DNA from: an uncultured Microthrixaceae bacterium
GTDB taxonomy: Bacteria; Actinomycetota; Acidimicrobiia; Acidimicrobiales; DATDAH01
Reading direction: 5' to 3'
Length of the DNA: 64,000 nucleotides
Assembly: GCA_963845425.1 (NCBI GenBank)
Contig: CAWJSC010000005.1
Location: 238,246-302,245 of the forward strand
The notes beneath the pieces were generated by a model. It was not told where the DNA came from. It saw nothing but the letters and a program-made list of their open reading frames with translations, and did not search any database. A program made the translations under genes and the position numbers. Each line of letters begins with the position of its first letter. Positions within the stretch are counted from its first letter, which is position 1. Positions 5,357-37,669 of this stretch are shown here, in pieces.

Positions 5357-5410
5357 CCTGAAATTGCGCCGATTTGTCACGCCAGGCGTGACAAATCGGC
5401 GCAATTTGGC
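5357..5410. repeat. 54-nt palindromic element, variant B (perfect 23-bp arms)
   Basis: cctgAAATTGCGCCGATTTGTCACGCC-a-GGCGTGACAAATCGGCGCAATTTggc. The arms are exact reverse complements separated by 1 nt. It lies between the convergent thiolase and nfu-like genes. Confidence 0.9.
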
Positions 5411-8375: not shown

Positions 8376-8429
8376 TCGTTCTGGCGCCTGATTCGGGCGC
8401 CATGACACCACAATCAGGCGCCAGAACGA
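8376..8429. repeat. 54-nt palindromic element, variant A (GTTCTGGCGCC arms)
   Basis: TCGTTCTGGCGCCTGATT-18 nt-AATCAGGCGCCAGAACGA, with perfect 18-bp arms. It lies between convergent genes. Confidence 0.9.
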
Positions 8430-9899: not shown

Positions 9900-10598
9900 G
9901 TGGCCGGGGCCGACGCGTGCCGGGGCGGATGGTGCGTGGTCACCCTGCCCGTCGAGGGCGACGCCACCGTGGAGGTCATCGACCGCTTCACCAAGGTCGC
10001 CGCCCGCCAGGCCAAGGGCCGGCTGGGCGCCGTCGGCGTCGACATCCCCATCGGCCTGTCCGACGGCCCGCCCCGCAAGTGCGACGTCGACGCCCGGGCC
10101 CTGCTCGGTGACCGGCGGTCTTCGGTGTTCCCCGCGCCGCTCCGCCCGGTGTTGGGTGCCCGGAGCTACGAGGCGGCGCTGGCCCGCTCCCGGGAGGCCA
10201 GCGGCGTCGGCCTGTCCAAGCAGGCCTGGAACCTCGTGCCGAAGGTCACCGAGGTGGACCGCCTGCTCGACCCGACCCGCCAGGGCCGCATCTTCGAGTG
10301 CCACCCCGAGGCCGCCTTCGCCGCCCTCCACGGTGTCCCGATGGCCCATCCCAAGAAGGGCCGGCCCGGGCGGGACGAGCGCCTGATGGTCCTCCGTCCC
10401 CACGTGCCGGGGATCGACGCCCTCGTGGCCCAGCCGCCCTCGGGCGCCGCGGCCGACGACGTCCTCGACGCCGCGGTCGTCGCCGTCACGGCCAAGGCCA
10501 TGCTCGCCGGCAAGGTCCGTCGCCTCGGCGAGCGCCGCCACGACGCCGAGGGCCTCGTCATGGAGATCGTCATCCCCGAGCCCGGCTACACCCCCTGA
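9900..10598 (+). CDS. DUF429 domain protein (predicted RNase H-like fold)
   Basis: N-terminus VAGADACRGGWCVV and DIPIGL...CD..AR..LG are typical DUF429 features. GTG start. Confidence 0.65.
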   Translation: MAGADACRGGWCVVTLPVEGDATVEVIDRFTKVAARQAKGRLGAVGVDIPIGLSDGPPRKCDVDARALLGDRRSSVFPAPLRPVLGARSYEAALARSREASGVGLSKQAWNLVPKVTEVDRLLDPTRQGRIFECHPEAAFAALHGVPMAHPKKGRPGRDERLMVLRPHVPGIDALVAQPPSGAAADDVLDAAVVAVTAKAMLAGKVRRLGERRHDAEGLVMEIVIPEPGYTP

Positions 10599-10602
10599 GT
10601 CC

Positions 10603-10656
10603 CCCTTCTGGCGCCGCTTTCGGCGGCCAGGACGACCGAAACGGGCGCCAGAACCG
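10603..10656. repeat. 54-nt palindromic element, variant A (degenerate)
   Basis: cccTTCTGGCGCCgcTTTCG-14 nt-CGAAAcgGGCGCCAGAAccg. It starts 5 nt after the DUF429 stop and lies upstream of the WS/DGAT gene. Confidence 0.8.
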
Positions 10657-10766
10657 CGGTGACCGGACCTCGCCGGGGCGAGAGGCGTCACCTGGTGGTA
10701 CCGCTTGAGGGTCACGGGCCCGGAAGTCGTCGTACGATCGGGGCGACATCGACTTGGGGGTGGCGC

Positions 10767-12398
10767 ATGCAACGGTTGACCGGGCTCGACGCCGGGTTCC
10801 TCTCCATGGAGACGCCCACGGCCCCGATGCACGTGGCGGGCCTGGCCGTGTTCGACCCGTCCGAGGTCGAGGGCCGTTTCGACATCGACCACCTGCGGGA
10901 GGTCTACGAGCCCCGCCTGCACATGGCCCCGCCGTTCCGGCGCCGCCTGCGTGAGGTCCCCTTCGGCCTCCACCACCCGCTGTGGATCGAGGATCCGGAC
11001 TTCGACATCGAGTGGCACCTCCGCCGGGTGGCGGTCCCCGCCCCGGGTGGTCCCCGGGAGCTGGCCGAGTTGGCTGCCCACCTGAACGCCATCCCGCTCG
11101 ACCGCAGCCGGCCCCTGTGGGAGATGTGGCTGATCGACGGTGTCGCCGGCGGTCACGTCGCCGTCCTCAGCAAGGTCCACCACGCCGCCATCGACGGGGC
11201 ATCGGGCAACGAGATCACCGTGGCCACTCTTGACCTGTCCCCGGAGGGCGGCGAGGTCCCGCCGCCCGAGGAGGAGTGGAAGCCGGACACGATCCCGTCC
11301 GACGCCGAGATGCTGGCCCACGCCACGGCCTCGCTCCTGTCCTCGCCCATCCGCATGATGAAGGTCACCCGCCGCACGATCGACGCCGCTCTGGGCCGGC
11401 GGCGCCTGCCGAGCTCGAGCTCGCCGCCCTCGCCGTTCGCCGCGCCGAAGACGTCGATCAACGGACCGCTCACCCGTCAGCGGGTCCTGGCGACGACCTC
11501 GCTCTCGCTGCCCGCGGTGAAAGCCATCAAGGCCCACCACGACGTGAAGGTGAACGACGTCATCCTGGCGCTGTGCGCCGGGGCGCTACGGCGCTGGTTC
11601 GACGACCGGGGGGAGGACCTGTCCGGCCCGCTCGTGGCCATGGTCCCCGTCTCGGTGCGGACCGAGGGTGAGAAGGGGGCCATGGGCAACCGGGTGTCCT
11701 CGATGCTGGTCAGCCTGGCCACCGAGGTGAGCGATCCGGCGGTGCGCCTGCAGGTCATCGGCGACGCCACCCGGGAGGCCAAGGAGCGCCACGCCATCGG
11801 GGCGGATGCCCTGACCGACTGGGCGGAGTTCGCCGCCCCGGCGCTGCTGGGCCGGGCCGCCCGGCTCTACTCCCGCATGCACCTGGCCAACATGCACCGG
11901 CCGGTGTTCAACGTGACCATCTCCAACGTGCCCGGCCCGCCGTTCCCGCTCTACTCGGCCGGCGCCCGCCTCGTCGCCAACTACCCGATCGGGCCGATCT
12001 ACGACGGGTCCGGCCTGAACATGACCGTCATGAGCTACCGGGAGCAGCTCGACTTCGGCCTGCAGGGTGACCCCGAGCTGCTGGGCGACCCCTGGGTCCT
12101 GGCCGGCCACCTCGAGGACGCTCTGGCCGAGTTGGCCGCCACCGTCCCCGAGTTGGACGGCGTGCCGCTCGTGGTGCACCCCTTCGGCGACGAGGCCGAG
12201 CCCGTGACGGCGACGGTGACGGTGACGGCGCCCGAGTCGGACCCCGACGACCTCACCGTGATCCAGGACACCGAGGAGCTGATCGCCCGGGCCCAGGAGG
12301 CCCTCGGCCGGGCCCAGACCGATCGGGCCGACGCCGCCGCCATCAGCGCCGCCCTCGACCAGCTCCGCCGCGCCGCCGACTTCAGCCAATCCGCCTGA
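10767..12398 (+). CDS. Wax ester synthase / diacylglycerol acyltransferase (WS/DGAT)
   Basis: N-terminus MQRLTGLDAGFL, catalytic HHAAIDGASG (HHxxxDG), C-terminal NVPGP...LY motif. Confidence 0.85.
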   Translation: MQRLTGLDAGFLSMETPTAPMHVAGLAVFDPSEVEGRFDIDHLREVYEPRLHMAPPFRRRLREVPFGLHHPLWIEDPDFDIEWHLRRVAVPAPGGPRELAELAAHLNAIPLDRSRPLWEMWLIDGVAGGHVAVLSKVHHAAIDGASGNEITVATLDLSPEGGEVPPPEEEWKPDTIPSDAEMLAHATASLLSSPIRMMKVTRRTIDAALGRRRLPSSSSPPSPFAAPKTSINGPLTRQRVLATTSLSLPAVKAIKAHHDVKVNDVILALCAGALRRWFDDRGEDLSGPLVAMVPVSVRTEGEKGAMGNRVSSMLVSLATEVSDPAVRLQVIGDATREAKERHAIGADALTDWAEFAAPALLGRAARLYSRMHLANMHRPVFNVTISNVPGPPFPLYSAGARLVANYPIGPIYDGSGLNMTVMSYREQLDFGLQGDPELLGDPWVLAGHLEDALAELAATVPELDGVPLVVHPFGDEAEPVTATVTVTAPESDPDDLTVIQDTEELIARAQEALGRAQTDRADAAAISAALDQLRRAADFSQSA

Positions 12399-26478: not shown

Positions 26479-26532
26479 TCCGAAATTGCGTCGATTTGTC
26501 ACGCTGAGCGTGACAAATCAGCGCCAGAACGC
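26479..26532. repeat. 54-nt palindromic element, B/A chimera
   Basis: tccgAAATTGCGTCGATTTGTCACGC-tga-GCGTGACAAATCAGCGCCAGAACgc. The left arm is variant-B-like and the right arm ends in the variant-A terminus GCGCCAGAAC. Confidence 0.85.
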
Positions 26533-28526: not shown

Positions 28527-29213
28527 ATGGACACCATGGCCGGCGTGGAGCTCGACCCCGACGATCCCGCCACCCGACTGGCGGACGAGCTGCGGGGCGC
28601 CATCGAGGAGCTGAGCTCGGTGGCCCATGACCCCGAGCGGGTGGCCCAGGCCATCGAGATGGCCGCCGAGCTGCGGACGTTCCTCGACGGCCCCCGGGCG
28701 CCCCGCTGGTACGAGGCCGGTGCGGTGGCCGGCGTGCTCGACGAACAGAGCGGCACGGCCTTCCAGAAGCAGAGCCTGTTCCGGGGCGCCCACAACCCGC
28801 TGGCCCCGCCGATGGCGATGGACGTCGTCGAGGACGAGGACGGCCGCCGCATCGAGTCGAGGGTCACCCTCGGCCTGGCCTACGAGGGGCCGCCCCACGG
28901 CGTCCACGGCGGCTACGTGGCGGGGATGTTCGACGACGTGCTCGGCGCCACCCAGCGGCTGATGGAGAAGCCGGGGGTGACCGGGCGCCTGACCGTCCAC
29001 TACCGCCACATCACCCCCATCGAGGAGGAGCTGACGCTGCGGGCCTGGGTGACCGAGGACGAGGGCCGCCGCATCGTGGCCAAGGCCACCTGCCACGCCG
29101 GTGACCTGCTCACCGCCGAGGCCGAGGCCCTCTTCATCCGGGTCGACTTCACCGAGGTCATGGACCGCATGGCCGCAAGGCGCGACCCGACATCCGACCG
29201 TTCTGGCGCCTGA
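28527..29213 (+). CDS. PaaI-family hot-dog thioesterase
   Basis: GPPHGVHGGYVAGMFDDVLG and TGRLTVHYRHITP are hot-dog thioesterase features. The last residues (SGA) and the TGA stop lie inside the palindromic element. Confidence 0.7.
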   Translation: MDTMAGVELDPDDPATRLADELRGAIEELSSVAHDPERVAQAIEMAAELRTFLDGPRAPRWYEAGAVAGVLDEQSGTAFQKQSLFRGAHNPLAPPMAMDVVEDEDGRRIESRVTLGLAYEGPPHGVHGGYVAGMFDDVLGATQRLMEKPGVTGRLTVHYRHITPIEEELTLRAWVTEDEGRRIVAKATCHAGDLLTAEAEALFIRVDFTEVMDRMAARRDPTSDRSGA

Positions 29214-29977
29214 TCTTCCGGCCATGTCCGGCGAATCGGGCGCCAGTACGGCGGTGTACGCTCGGCGGCAGGTGTCAGGGGTGAGCAGCGCAGGCCTTCG
29301 GCGGCGGTGCGGGCGGCGGTGGTGGCCGCCGCGGTGGCGTTCCGGGCGAGCTCGGCCAGGCCGGGGACCTTGTCGGGGTGGCGCAGCACGTAGCGGAGGG
29401 CGGCGCCGACCTTGGGGGAGCCGTCGGGGTTGACCATGGTGAGGGTGGCGGTGTCGACGGTGTCGTCGTCGGCCCGGTCGCTGATGGCCCGGACCGCCGA
29501 CCACGGCACGCCCCGCTCCTGGCAGACGACGGCGACGGCGACGGTCTCCATGTCGACGGCCACGACCCCCGAGTCGATGAAGGTCGCCAGCGTGTCGGGC
29601 GGGTAGCCGTACTCGTCGGAGGACACGATCTCACCCGCCGGATCCAGGTCGCCGAGCGGTGCCGGCGCGAAGCCCCGTCGCTCCGGGAAGTCGCTGACGA
29701 CGCTGGGGATCACGAGGTCCCCGATGGCGACCGACGGTCCGATGCCCCCGGCGATGCCGACGACCACGACGTGGTCGACCTCGGCCCGGTCGAGCATCTG
29801 CCCGACGGCCTCGGTGGCCAGGTCGATGCCGATACCGGTGGTCGTGGCCACGACGTCGGCACCGCCCACCGTGCCGACGTGGCCCTCGAGGTCACCCGAT
29901 CGCCCCTTCGTCAGCCCGAAGGCCTTGACCACCGGCCGCAACTCCGAAGGCATCGGCGCCAGGATCCCGAACCTCAT
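29000..29977 (-). CDS. Nucleoside phosphorylase family protein (MTA/SAH nucleosidase-like); 3' end doubtful
   Basis: MRFGILAPMPSELRP, GIGIDLAT, VVVVGIAGG, VAVDMETVAVA and AVRAISD match the PNP_UDP_1 pattern. The ORF reads on through the palindromic element and 213 nt antisense into the thioesterase gene, so the true stop is probably near 29250-29280. Confidence 0.6.
   Translation of the reverse strand: MRFGILAPMPSELRPVVKAFGLTKGRSGDLEGHVGTVGGADVVATTTGIGIDLATEAVGQMLDRAEVDHVVVVGIAGGIGPSVAIGDLVIPSVVSDFPERRGFAPAPLGDLDPAGEIVSSDEYGYPPDTLATFIDSGVVAVDMETVAVAVVCQERGVPWSAVRAISDRADDDTVDTATLTMVNPDGSPKVGAALRYVLRHPDKVPGLAELARNATAAATTAARTAAEGLRCSPLTPAAERTPPYWRPIRRTWPEDQAPERSDVGSRLAAMRSMTSVKSTRMKRASASAVSRSPAWQVALATMRRPSSSVTQARSVSSSSMGVMWR
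29198..29251. repeat. 54-nt palindromic element, variant A
   Basis: cCGTTCTGGCGCCTGATcttccggccatgtccggcgaATCGGGCGCCAGTACGg. It contains the thioesterase stop codon (29211-29213). Confidence 0.85.
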
Positions 29978-35754: not shown

Positions 35755-37602
35755 GTGACCGATCTCGGGGTCCTCGGCACCGGTCGGCTCGGCGCGGTCG
35801 ACGCCTCGGGCGGGCTGCGGGCTGCCGGGGCCGACTGGTCGCTGGGCTGGTGGATCGGGTCCGAGGACCGCTGGCACGTGCCGCCCGTCGAGGCCGCCGT
35901 GCGCCAGACCCTCGTCGGCCACACCCCCGTGGTCGAGACCCGGGTCCGGGTTGTCAGTGGCGACATCGTGCACCACGCCTTCGCCGCCACCGGCCCGGGC
36001 GGGGCGCCTGCCCTCGTCGTCGAGATCACCAACGAGACGCCGATCCCGGTCGCCATCGGCTTCGTGGTCGACGGCGCGGCGTCGGTCGGCGTGGATGGTG
36101 CGGTGTTGACCGTGGACGGCTACCAGGTCCGCCTGCCCCGCCCGCCGAGCGAGTGGGTGGCGCCCGTCGCCTTCCTGCCGCTGCCCCACAAGGCGACCCT
36201 GCGGGTGGTCGTGGCCCGGGAGGCCCCCGACGCCGATGGCCTGCCCGACGCCGAACAGGTCGCCGCCGGCTGGCGGGCCCAGGGCGACGTCGGCTCCCGG
36301 TGGGTCCTGCCCGAGCCCACCATCGCCGCCGCGGCGGATGCCGCACGCGGTTTTCTGCTCGTGCACGACGGGCCCGACCTGGCCACCACCGCCTGGCTGG
36401 CCGAGGCCCGCCACCAGCTCGGCCTCCGGGCCGAGCAGGGCTTCCGGACCGGCCTCGTGGCCGGCCAGCGCCTGTCGGGCCGGATCCCCGACGTGACCGC
36501 CTCGGAGGCGTCGACCGGCCAGGCTCTCGTCGCCCTCGGTGTCGACCCCGCTCCCGAGCTGGTGGGCCCCGTGGCCAAGGCGGCCCACGCCATCGAGCGT
36601 CGACGTCGGGTCCGCAGGCACCGCAAGGACCCCCAGCGAGCCGGCCTCCTGCCCGGGGGGCCGCAGCCCCCGATCCTCGGCCACGAGGCCCAGACCTACC
36701 TCGACGACTGGTGGTCCGTCGCCGGCCTCGTCCGGGCCGCCCGCCTTCTGGAGGCCGAGGCCCAGCTCGAGGCCTCCGTCGACGCCTGGCGCTTCGCCCG
36801 GGGCCTCGCCGCCGACGTCGACCGCGCCATCACCGTCGTTCTGGCGCCCGATCCTCCGCCCCTGACCGGCGAATCAGGCGCCAGAACGAGCCCGGCGATT
36901 CCCGCGGGGCCGGGGCGGGCGGTGGATGCGGGGATCGTGGGGGTCCTCGTCGGGGCGGGACTGGGGGCGGTCGATCCGGAGGCGCCGGCCGTGGCGGCCA
37001 CCCTGGACCTGATCCGGGATGACCTGACGACGGCGACCGGCGGGGTGACGGCCGGGGTGCTGTCCGACGGGTGGTCGCCGTGGCTGACGGCCCTCCTGGC
37101 CAAGACCGAGATCGGCCTGGGTGACCCCCGCGGCCTCGACCGCCTGCGGGCGCTCGCCACGGTGGCCGCCGGCCGCGGCTCGTGGCCCGAGTTGGTGGGC
37201 GGCGAGCCGGCGATCCCCGTCGACCTGGCCGACCACCACGGGCCGGCCACGGCTGCCTTCCTCCTGGCGGTGCGCTCGTTGCTCGTCGTCGAGCGGGGGC
37301 CGTACCTCCAGCCGCCGGACCGACTGGCCGTTCTTCCCGTCATGGCCCCCGAGTGGTACGGCCAGGGCATCGAGCTCCACGACACGCCCACGGCGTTCGG
37401 TACCTTCGGCTTCGCCGTCCGCTGGCACGGCGACCGCCCGGCGTTGCTGTGGGAGCTGGATCCGTCGCCCACGGCCCCGGCCTTCCGGCTCGAGGCGCCG
37501 GGCCTCGACCCCGCCTGGTCCAGCGCGGACGCCAAGGGTGAGGCCCTCCTCGCCCCCTGCAAGGCCCCCGACGCCGCCGACGTCGAGGTCGACTTCTCGT
37601 GA
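35755..37602 (+). CDS. Hypothetical 615-aa protein, possibly (alpha/alpha)6-barrel glycoside-hydrolase-like, carrying an in-frame palindromic-element insertion
   Basis: Continuous coding-like ORF starting 2 nt after the gpsA stop. Helical-repeat segments (YLDDWWSVAGLVRAARLL, WSPWLTALLAKTE, HHGPATAAFLLAVRSL) suggest a GH15-like barrel. Family assignment is tentative. Confidence 0.5.
   Translation: MTDLGVLGTGRLGAVDASGGLRAAGADWSLGWWIGSEDRWHVPPVEAAVRQTLVGHTPVVETRVRVVSGDIVHHAFAATGPGGAPALVVEITNETPIPVAIGFVVDGAASVGVDGAVLTVDGYQVRLPRPPSEWVAPVAFLPLPHKATLRVVVAREAPDADGLPDAEQVAAGWRAQGDVGSRWVLPEPTIAAAADAARGFLLVHDGPDLATTAWLAEARHQLGLRAEQGFRTGLVAGQRLSGRIPDVTASEASTGQALVALGVDPAPELVGPVAKAAHAIERRRRVRRHRKDPQRAGLLPGGPQPPILGHEAQTYLDDWWSVAGLVRAARLLEAEAQLEASVDAWRFARGLAADVDRAITVVLAPDPPPLTGESGARTSPAIPAGPGRAVDAGIVGVLVGAGLGAVDPEAPAVAATLDLIRDDLTTATGGVTAGVLSDGWSPWLTALLAKTEIGLGDPRGLDRLRALATVAAGRGSWPELVGGEPAIPVDLADHHGPATAAFLLAVRSLLVVERGPYLQPPDRLAVLPVMAPEWYGQGIELHDTPTAFGTFGFAVRWHGDRPALLWELDPSPTAPAFRLEAPGLDPAWSSADAKGEALLAPCKAPDAADVEVDFS
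36836..36889. repeat. 54-nt palindromic element, variant A, inside a CDS (in frame)
   Basis: TCGTTCTGGCGCCCGATcctccgcccctgaccggcgaATCAGGCGCCAGAACGA. It is translated as V-LAPDPPPLTGESGART within the 35755-37602 ORF. Confidence 0.85.
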
Positions 37603-37615
37603 GCGACCCGCGATC

Positions 37616-37669
37616 CCGTTCTGGTACCAGCCCTGTATGCCCCAGTGGACATGGCTGGTACCAGAACGG
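37616..37669. repeat. 54-nt palindromic element, variant A2 (GTTCTGGTACC arms)
   Basis: CCGTTCTGGTACCAGCC-20 nt-GGCTGGTACCAGAACGG, with perfect arms (18 bp including the flanking C/G). An extra partial arm GGCTGGTTCTGGT lies at 37676-37688. Confidence 0.9.

Follow-up and report, generated by a model that had tools for sequence, protein, structure and literature searches.

A 615-aa open reading frame in the stretch of Microthrixaceae DNA analysed here (64 kb, hereafter the window) carries a palindrome in its middle, which raises the question of whether a repeat element has entered a gene in frame and, if so, what the additional residues mean for the protein. The answer that we favour, and consider quite likely, is that a lineage-specific REP/MITE-like palindrome landed in frame in a loop of an enzyme-like protein, where it is carried as a translated passenger. 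The features of the window that bear on this question are collected in Table 1.

Table 1. Host gene and copies of the palindromic repeat in the window
Feature	Position	Strand	Remarks
Host gene, 615-aa uncharacterised protein	35755..37602	+	~47 homologues
In-gene palindromic copy	36836..36889	.	Reads TCGTTCTGGCGCCCGATCCTCCGCCCCTGACCGGCGAATCAGGCGCCAGAACGA; core TTCTGGCGCC...GGCGCCAGAA at 36839-36886
Extragenic family copy	8376..8429	.	Orthologous copy present in L114
Extragenic family copy	10604..10655	.	Fills the 60-nt spacer between co-directional genes 9900-10598 and 10659-12398
Family copy, convergent-gene spacer	29198..29251	.	The upstream + gene (...DRSGA, then stop) ends on the TGA of the copy at 29211-29213
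Sister-subfamily copy (CGTTCTGGTACCAG...CTGGTACCAGAACG, same 48-nt geometry)	37617..37668	.	15 nt past the host stop codon

An earlier inspection of the DNA without database searches (the sequence-only reading) had placed the palindrome inside one continuous gene, and the coding frame is indeed identical on either side of it. The third-position GC content (GC3) is 0.93 and 0.94 in the flanks of the host gene and 0.65 over the 17 element codons, among which GTT, AGA, TCA and GAA are rare. Translated on the + strand, the copy accounts for host residues 362-378 (VLAPDPPPLTGESGART), which are read as V362-LAPDPPPLTGESGAR-T378. Its arms of 23 nt are 87% complementary, and the predicted RNA hairpin of the copy has a value of -32.5 kcal/mol, compared with -15.5 +/- 2.7 kcal/mol for shuffled sequences. 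The in-gene copy is identical in L003, a contig 97% identical to the window, and a 620-nt metagenome contig (X3) covers it together with both flanks. DNA runs with the in-gene sequence show its presence; no RNA runs holding it were found. We infer that the element is expressed within a single polypeptide through transcription and translation of the whole ORF. A tryptic peptide over the copy would include ...AITVVLAPDPPPLTGESGAR.

The same reading had set the TGA of the copy in the convergent spacer against a CGA in the in-gene copy. The TGA is present, but the contrast carries no meaning: the host gene is read in a different frame from this triplet, and the Y position concerned is polymorphic in the family (C in 44 and T in 32 of 81 copies). 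In the host gene, Y is the third base of a Pro codon (GCG CCC GAT), and a T would still encode Pro; therefore, the choice between C and T is unrelated to keeping the frame open, and a coding adaptation from TGA to CGA was ruled out.

The palindrome belongs to a repeat family, of which five copies lie within the window and at least 79 further copies lie beyond it, nearly all from Microthrixaceae or Acidimicrobiales MAGs; the Microthrixaceae MAG contigs often hold several copies each. The family is a near-perfect palindrome of 48-54 nt with the form (Y)CG-TTCTGGCGCC-YGAT-(variable self-complementary core)-ATCR-GGCGCCAGAA-CG(R). Its ends are symmetric, (Y)CGTTCTGG / CCAGAACG(R), and its 15-nt terminal inverted repeats (GTTCTGGCGCCYGAT / ATCRGGCGCCAGAAC) are conserved around a variable interior. 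In the window, 8 matches to the 15-nt arm motif were counted, where shuffled sequences predict 0.56; none of 100 shuffles reached 8. Across 81 aligned copies, the spacing is strictly 48 nt, and TTCTGGCGCC and GGCGCCAGAA are invariant, an invariance that follows from the design of the scan, which demanded both 10-mers. In this alignment, 86% of the stem cells are paired (78% in shuffles and 34-43% with the partners slid), 14 stem pairs are altered on both sides, and the median hairpin is -39 kcal/mol. The sister subfamily found behind the host gene also occurs in L087 and L191.

Several known classes of element were considered for this hairpin. Rfam gave no match over the whole window at the gathering threshold, and sub-threshold miRNA-precursor look-alikes from a permissive scan around the element were dismissed as generic hairpins. 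The 3' flanks read CGA or CGG followed by GC-rich sequence, and the hairpin thus lacks the T-run of an intrinsic (Rho-independent) terminator. Terminators without a U-tract have been discussed for actinobacteria, and the element may exert a terminator-like effect. An uptake-sequence-like or operator-like motif was rejected on the grounds that single 10-mer arms are almost absent and the strong matches in the window are all paired at 48 nt; the rarity of the element in divergent (promoter) spacers also argues against such a motif.

About 90% of the copies sit outside genes, a short distance past a stop codon. With gene calls that are a GC3-based approximation, 31 of 82 copies were assigned to convergent, 32 to co-directional and 7 to divergent contexts. 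For half of these 82 copies, the distance to the upstream stop codon is at most 25 nt; about 10 of the 82 supply the TGA of the neighbouring gene, which thereby ends in a short C-terminal tail (...RSGA). In-frame internal copies were found in just two genes (2 of 82-83 copies, ~2-3%), namely the 615-aa ORF and a glcF homologue in another MAG. Three other candidates (L184, L143 and L133) were discarded because the real start codon follows shortly after the element, and the signal peptide or true N-terminus is encoded beyond it; a fourth (L148) was discarded because it sits in a shadow ORF.

Orthologous spacers are empty, filled or occupied by another subfamily. The spacer corresponding to the copy at 10604, for example, is empty in L103 and contains a GGCACC-subfamily copy in L114, and the site equivalent to 29198 in L002 holds a copy with the same arms and a different core, where the called gene also stops at the TGA of the element. 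Many metagenome contigs carry the element with unrelated flanks, and short-read contigs end at the repeat. A target-site duplication was looked for and none is visible; the flanks prolong the palindrome (CG/CG, CC/GG) but form no clear direct repeats, and the filled and empty pairs are too diverged for base-level mapping. Metagenome contigs contained no insertion-polymorphism joints at any copy. A tblastn search of 1.3 Mb of sampled loci for RAYT/IS200-like proteins, with an approximate and distant IS200 TnpA query, gave a best E value of 1.5, and the 2-kb stretch between two L180 copies has no obvious transposase. Because neither a target-site duplication nor a transposase or RAYT was found, we infer the mobility of the element from its distribution alone.

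The host gene lies in a conserved order between gpsA and an adenylate cyclase gene. Profile searches of its product against NCBIfam and the PDB gave no match, and a Pfam match to PRR22 was below the cut-off and spurious. The AlphaFold2 model (pTM 0.88) predicts that a beta-sandwich at the N-terminus (1-155) is followed by an (alpha/alpha)-barrel (166-510) and by a second beta-sandwich at the C-terminus, and Foldseek matched it to GH15/GH94/GH65-type enzymes with E values of 3e-8 to 1e-6; the modelled fold is glycoside hydrolase/phosphorylase-like. The insert is predicted to lie within a 27-residue coil (364-390) joining helices 338-363 and 391-403, with pLDDT below 50 at residues 371-377. In the model of the element-free orthologue P0017, the same helices are joined by a coil of 15 residues, with no other change to the fold. 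According to these models, the insert is at a permissive loop and leaves the fold unchanged. The assumption of the sequence-only reading that the two halves of the ORF form one protein is borne out by the single predicted architecture and by the continuity of the element-free orthologues.

The insert-bearing orthologues form one monophyletic clade, and the insert is absent from its sister (P0012) and from every outgroup. Relatives in which the DNA palindrome is missing have no counterpart of the residues either, and they are collinear through the insertion site; neither of the two outcomes that the sequence-only reading had named as refuting it was thus observed. Specifically, in the element-free proteins (P0012, P0014-P0017, P0019-P0022, P0024-P0026 and P0028-P0030), the region has about 19 residues (15-21), and L196 provided the DNA sequence of an empty site. 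With one copy, the region has 29-30 residues. Therefore, the proposal that the element adds 18 codons is correct as far as its 54 nt and the intact frame are concerned, but the net gain over the element-free orthologues is 10-11 residues and not a clean 18. This difference from the element length indicates either that the original insertion was not clean or that the loop was remodelled later. Each full-length orthologue in the clade with inserts (12 of 12) keeps the frame, and the loop spans 19-85 residues among them. Within the clade, this loop is a hot spot that contains either one to three tandem copies (three in P0004/L193, three in P0006/L194 and two in P0001/L006) or deletion remnants.

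The second in-gene case is the glcF gene of L125, in which the element occupies an inter-domain linker in the same reading frame as in the 615-aa ORF. The element is present in the glcF orthologues P0049, P0051, P0054 and P0057-P0061 and absent from P0062, P0064, P0065, P0070, P0074 and P0096.

The origin that we propose starts from a putatively selfish REP/MITE-like palindrome of Microthrixaceae, defined by its 48-nt geometry, 15-nt inverted termini and variable core, and normally placed within a few bases after a stop codon. In the ancestor of one clade, a copy would have entered the flexible inter-helix loop of the (alpha/alpha)-barrel protein. Its landing frame appears to be the only one that is always open and loop-friendly, GTT CTG GCG CCY GAT ... 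TCR GGC GCC AGA ACG (VLAPD...SGART), and the gene would have survived because this frame is open and the loop tolerates changes in length. Later, the loop would have been struck again, giving tandem copies, and trimmed by internal deletions, which would yield the present spread of lengths among close relatives. The inserted peptide would be a passenger rather than a designed feature, and it is presumably neutral.

An explanation that dispenses with insertion, in which two genes or a pseudogene were joined by chance through an open palindrome or a native coding sequence seeded the family, appears extremely improbable. It could draw on L003, the nearest relative, where gene calling split the gene into ORFs of 422 aa and 203 aa. 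That split is caused by a frameshift just before the element: a run of C is longer by one base at 8 nt upstream, in an otherwise identical sequence, and this frameshift is probably a homopolymer error of the long-read assembly. Moreover, this explanation is at odds with the twelve continuous orthologues, the collinearity of the element-free ones, the single barrel fold predicted to span both halves, the extragenic position of about 97% of the family copies and the non-coding-like codon usage of the insert. A harder question is whether the copies in the orthologues go back to one insertion. The chance that they do not, with the loop or a resident element acting as a preferred target and the window copy arriving later, to replace or outlast the ancestral one, is in our estimate a little below even. 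Different subfamilies occupy identical boundaries in the orthologues, and the triple array of P0004/L193 mixes GGCGCC and GGCCTCC types. The GGCCTCC arm type is restricted to the host gene and found in both sub-clades, and is thus probably the ancestral copy. The core of the window copy agrees at 25 of 28 positions with an unrelated intergenic copy (L142_7171; the family median is 24), a closeness equal to that among intergenic copies, and the in-gene cores of the orthologues are further from the family (19-22 of 28). The intergenic site at 29198, with the same arms and a different core in the window and in L002, offers a parallel. However, the tree favours a single origin on grounds of parsimony, the boundaries shared to the nucleotide by all orthologues are what descent would give, and the comparison covers just five to eight in-gene copies.

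The in-gene hairpins are strong (-27 to -54 kcal/mol) across species that are ~25% apart in protein sequence, and the arms vary in a compensatory manner between orthologues (GGCGCC / GGCCTCC-GGAGGCC / GGCACCGG-CCGGTGCC); this is not what pure neutral decay predicts. A hairpin that is functional and under selection, as a pause or attenuator, an RNase III-type site (stem of ~22 bp) or a cruciform or protein-binding site, with the peptide as a by-product, would account for palindromy at a protein identity of ~75%, for the perfect 50-nt palindrome of the L001 copy, for orthologue cores that are almost wholly different yet partly self-complementary, and for a 48-nt length that is constant across subfamilies. 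We nevertheless regard it as distinctly unlikely. Conservation at third codon positions is not higher in the arms than in the flanks (0.59 vs ~0.7 in a crude ungapped flank alignment), and some copies are decayed or deleted (-16 to -27 kcal/mol in L194, remnants in L191 and L002). On the sense strand, G-T mismatches are not in excess over A-C mismatches (32 vs 44, p=0.21), and there is thus no pointer to selection at the RNA level. Intramolecular template switching at quasi-palindromes can keep arms matched without selection, as can copy replacement. A wider reading, also unlikely, is that the palindrome is actively kept or renewed within the coding sequence, either as an engine of loop hypervariability or as a functional hairpin embedded in the ORF. 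Its basis is the covariation of the arms between species, a perfect palindrome and a loop re-colonised up to three times; the mechanism would be quasi-palindrome template switching or element-targeted reinsertion within the gene.

Returning to the passenger palindrome, the analogy with Rickettsia palindromic elements (RPEs) drawn by the sequence-only reading is apt, but the phenomenon is broader, with REPs reported in genes of several phyla (PMC3733652) and in-frame MITEs in further bacteria (PMC10969869). RPEs are palindromes of roughly 100-150 nt that lie in frame in unrelated conserved genes and are reported to be unusually frequent in ORFs (Ogata et al. 2000, summarised in PMC10969869 and PMC3733652). 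The element shares with them in-frame insertion, a peptide tolerated at a surface or linker position and the use of the same element frame in different genes; in both the host gene and glcF, a conserved ORF keeps its frame and element-free orthologues lack the residues. In contrast, it is set apart by size (48-54 nt) and phylum (Actinomycetota vs Alphaproteobacteria), with only ~2-3% of the copies intragenic and gene 3' ends as the usual habitat. The element works like an RPE, and we do not claim membership of the RPE families. Intragenic REPs are reported in several phyla, where copies, dimers and clusters encode 20-80 extra residues (Di Nocera et al. 2013, PMC3733652), and in-frame MITEs include Coxiella QMITE1, Anabaena MITEs, intragenic ERIC and others (PMC10969869, PMC5896051).

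The repeat is a multi-copy GC-rich palindrome, mostly extragenic and downstream of genes, and resembles REP/BIME elements in its short hairpins, high copy number, convergent and co-directional spacers, position within ~20 bp of 3' ends, sub-families side by side in one genome and occasional in-ORF copies. It departs from REPs in its symmetric termini without a GTAG or CGTC end tag, its longer stem and its greater length (usually 20-40 nt in REPs). Like bacterial MITEs, it has terminal inverted repeats and a variable interior, is non-autonomous and permits translational fusions; unlike them, it is much smaller and entirely hairpin. MIRUs, which are direct tandem units of 46-101 bp in actinobacterial operon spacers that overlap neighbouring stop and start codons, are likewise short repeats wedged in spacers and overlapping stop codons, but they are not palindromic. 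To our knowledge, MIRUs have not been reported as in-frame inserts in enzyme loops. We therefore describe a new REP/MITE-like family with an RPE-like in-frame event, of a kind already known, in a new lineage and with a new repeat. The sequence-only reading knew of no such event in actinobacteria; our literature search likewise found no report for Actinobacteria or Microthrixaceae, and the REP survey makes no mention of Actinobacteria (PMC3733652).

In practical terms, the repeat breaks short-read assemblies, lengthens loops in orthologue alignments and misleads gene callers into spurious N-terminal extensions (L143, L184, L133). It gives a stop codon and a short tail to about one in eight of the genes that it abuts. 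The loop of 19-85 residues is a natural experiment on the insertion tolerance of an (alpha/alpha)-barrel loop. The finding adds an abundant, undescribed hairpin repeat family to the poorly studied, uncultured Microthrixaceae (Acidimicrobiia) of soil, sediment and wastewater, and the colonisation of enzyme loops in frame by putatively selfish palindromes, best known from Rickettsia, would extend to the high-GC Actinomycetota.

The palindromic element in the host gene, TCGTTCTGGCGCCCGATCCTCCGCCCCTGACCGGCGAATCAGGCGCCAGAACGA, has arms of 23 nt each that are 87% complementary and separated by 8 nt (repeat finder). Its RNA hairpin is predicted at −32.5 kcal/mol, compared with −15.5 ± 2.7 in shuffled sequence, and its 15-nt arm motif GTTCTGGCGCCYGAT occurs eight times in the window when up to two mismatches are permitted (0.56 expected; eight or more in 0 of 100 shuffles). 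GC3 is 0.93 upstream and 0.94 downstream of the element, and both flanks share one codon-position GC pattern, that of coding sequence. The element codons (n = 17) have a GC3 of 0.65 and include the genome-rare codons GTT, AGA, TCA and GAA. The sequence and the flanking GC3 bear out the sequence-only reading of a palindrome lying in frame inside the 615-residue ORF, which is one real gene. That reading had also contrasted a TGA in the copy at 29198 with a C in this one; the contrast has no bearing on the open frame, because the C of GCGCCCGAT occupies the third position of a Pro codon (GCG CCC GAT), where T would still encode proline, and the TGA of other family copies lies in a frame other than that of the host gene. 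This position (Y in the consensus) is an ordinary polymorphism, with C in 44 and T in 32 among 81 copies. In run X3, a short-read metagenome contig of 620 nt covers the element plus both flanks. Many further metagenome contigs have the element in common and diverge in their flanks, as expected of a dispersed repeat.

Coordinates of the repeat copies and associated features (L-numbers are comparison loci)
Feature	Locus	Position	Remark
Host gene	window	35755-37602 (+)	615 aa
Main-type copy	window	8376-8429	
Main-type copy	window	10604-10655	occupies a whole 60-nt spacer
Main-type copy	window	29198-29251	supplies stop codon (TGA 29211-29213)
Main-type copy	window	36836-36889	in host gene
Sister sub-family copy	window	37617-37668	TACC arms, CGTTCTGGTACCAG...CTGGTACCAGAACG; 48-nt geometry; 15 nt beyond host gene stop codon
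Second palindrome	window	5361-5407	unrelated to the element
Second palindrome	window	26488-26524	unrelated to the element
Frameshift in orthologue	L003	4080-4085	window about 36830
In-gene copy	L125	933-980	in minus-strand gene 94-1407 (glcF homologue)
Copy upstream of start	L143	7030-7077	open in frame
Copy upstream of start	L184	658-705	open in frame
Copy upstream of start	L133	484-531	open in frame
Empty site of P0017	L196	1527-1631	native 14-nt palindrome

A scan of 185,579 species genomes with the pattern TTCTGGCGCC-N15-45-GGCGCCAGAA returned at least 107 stretches. At least 79 matches have the exact 48-nt geometry, nearly all of them in Microthrixaceae or Acidimicrobiales MAGs and often many per contig; matches of other lengths are scattered over unrelated taxa and look like chance. 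The family consensus is (Y)CG-TTCTGGCGCC-YGAT-[about 9-nt stem]-[4-6-nt loop]-[stem']-ATCR-GGCGCCAGAA-CG(R). Across 81 aligned copies, 86% of the stem cells are paired, compared with 78% after shuffling and 34-43% with the partners slid, and 14 of the 24 stem pairs show both-sided changes. The cores form sub-families, and the arm variants GGCACCGG and GGTACC hold the 48-nt length. The TACC-armed sub-family recurs in L087 and, downstream of the orthologous gene, in L191; an unrelated hairpin occupies the equivalent spot in L197. Rfam yielded no family matching the repeat. The second palindrome of the window (AAATTGCGCCGATTTGTCACGCC and GGCGTGACAAATCGGCGCAATTT), perfect or near-perfect, had no exact match in the 196 loci compared, and a similar string occurs as a loose end in one metagenome contig (X3 at 8553). 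This palindrome may represent an operator site or a further repeat family.

According to our own GC3-based gene calls for 82 copies, 31 lie between convergent genes, 32 between co-directional genes and 7 between divergent genes; 5 are apparently inside an ORF, and the context of 7 was undetermined. For half of the copies, an upstream stop codon is at most 25 nt away. This is the same habitat as that described for repetitive extragenic palindromes (REPs; PMC3733652). In about 10 of the 82, the element's own TGA ends the neighbouring gene at a fixed offset of −13, giving the tail ...RSGA-stop and overlapping the 3' end of that gene by 13 nt. Besides the copy at 29198 and its counterpart in L002, stop-supplying copies occur in L089, L095, L113, L121, L123, L130, L142, L146, L185 and L187. 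In L103, the spacer orthologous to that filled by the copy at 10604 is empty; in L114, it is occupied by a copy of another sub-family. Copies in L143, L184 and L133 precede the true start codons by a few bases and add spurious N-terminal extensions to stop-to-stop ORFs, which makes wrongly annotated starts likely in these MAGs. The flanks of the copies have no T-run. Among mismatches, G-T is not in excess on the sense strand (32 vs 44, p = 0.21), and an RNA role of the element is therefore possible but not indicated.

The host protein has 47 homologues, all unnamed, and in Acidimicrobiales its gene always lies between gpsA and an adenylate-cyclase gene. Searches of Pfam, NCBIfam and PDB sequences with the protein gave no match. 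The AlphaFold2 model (28-sequence alignment, pTM 0.88) consists of a β-sandwich (1-155), a helical barrel (166-510) and a second β-sandwich. Foldseek matched it to glucoamylase, glucodextranase and cellobiose-phosphorylase type enzymes (8ic6_B, 4zle, 1v7v, 1ug9 and 1lf6; E 3e-8 to 1e-6). The family (P0001-P0047 and the window protein) is unannotated, and its glycoside hydrolase/phosphorylase-like (α/α)-barrel fold is confidently predicted. The more distant homologues P0034-P0038 have about 790-820 residues. In the closest relative, L003 (97% identical), the element is identical, and a C-run lying 8 nt upstream is longer by one C, so that the ORF is split and called as two (422 and 203 aa). Because the contig naming suggests a long-read assembly, the extra C is probably, though not provably, a homopolymer error next to the hairpin; it may instead mark a real pseudogene in that strain. 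Because the frame is conserved, the element-bearing ORF would be translated into one product.

In the orthologue alignment and in a neighbour-joining tree computed without the loop region, the proteins with extra residues form one clade (the window protein and P0001-P0011). At the site, a region of 15-21 residues, typically ...SIAxVTADLGVDAIP, is found in the sister P0012 and in all outgroups, and the insert residues are thus lineage-specific. Regions with one copy have 29-30 residues, so that the net gain is 10-11 residues and not the 18 of the sequence-only reading. The initial insertion was therefore either not clean or followed by remodelling of the loop. The modelled insert (V362-T378) runs from the end of helix 338-363 through the coil 364-390, with pLDDT below 50 at 371-377. 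The element-free P0017 is predicted to have the same helices and a coil of 15 residues (367-381). No copy of the element is present in the empty-site DNA of P0017 (L196), which has a small native palindrome, CGACCTCGAGGTCG, encoding DLEVD, at the position that the element occupies in the other clade; this may be a coincidence or a hint of hairpin-targeted insertion.

When 83 intact copies were screened with the reading frame taken into account, only two proved to lie inside a coding frame that is well supported on both sides, in the host gene and in the glycolate-oxidase Fe-S subunit homologue (glcF) of another Microthrixaceae MAG (L125). The remaining apparent intragenic copies turned out to precede the true start or to lie in shadow ORFs. 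The glcF insert is in an inter-domain linker that joins the ferredoxin-like domain to the CCG domain. There, a clade of orthologues (P0049, P0051, P0054 and P0057-P0061) has (V/E/A)LAP(D/E/G)...S(G/D)A(R/S), which is absent from P0062, P0064, P0065, P0070, P0074 and P0096. The element is read in one and the same frame (VLAPD...SGART) in the two genes. Of the other two frames, one has TGA if Y is T and the other reads FWR(L/P)(I/M).... In-gene carriage is thus not unique to the host gene, but it is rare.

Within the insert clade, the loop is a hot spot: the left and right boundaries of the insert are identical in all members, but the contents differ. The copy has GGCGCC arms in the window and L003, GGCCTCC/GGAGGCC arms in L001, L192 and L195, and GGCACCGG/CCGGTGCC arms in L004 and L005. 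Two tandem copies are present in L006 and L007, three in L193 and L194, and internally deleted remnants in L191 and L002. The frame is kept in all 12 full-length proteins of the clade. Arm differences between orthologous in-gene copies are compensatory, and the L001 copy is a perfect palindrome over 50 nt (−54 kcal/mol). A single ancestral insertion whose arms then co-evolved (template switching in the quasi-palindrome is one possible route) fits these data. The GGCCTCC type is probably the ancestral in-gene copy because it was found in the host gene alone and there in both sub-clades. The window core matches an unrelated intergenic copy (L142_7171) at 25 of 28 bases, and the median between intergenic copies is 24; the in-gene cores of other orthologues are more diverged (19-22 of 28). 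The intergenic site at 29198 parallels this pattern, since the window and L002 agree in site and arms and differ in core. Repeated insertion, either beside a resident copy or replacing it, with subsequent loss, fits the data as well and is in our estimate only slightly less likely than not.

The precedent named in the sequence-only reading, in-frame palindromes in Rickettsia (RPEs), is sound and extends further: besides these classic elements, REPs of several phyla and MITEs of Coxiella, Anabaena and enterobacteria are reported to form such inserts (PMC3733652, PMC10969869, PMC5896051). The Microthrixaceae repeat combines an RPE-like outcome with a REP habitat. Because it lacks the GTAG/CGTC tag of REPs, and neither a target-site duplication was detectable nor a transposase identified, we describe it as REP/MITE-like and as a member of neither family. 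Our literature search, whose coverage was incomplete, turned up no account of repeats of this kind from Actinobacteria, Acidimicrobiia or Microthrix, an absence that is not proof. It is well supported that a known kind of event has occurred in a new lineage, with a new hairpin repeat family read through in frame in a tolerant loop of a conserved, enzyme-like protein. More interesting still, palindromy appears to be kept up or renewed, and a single loop appears to have been colonised repeatedly.
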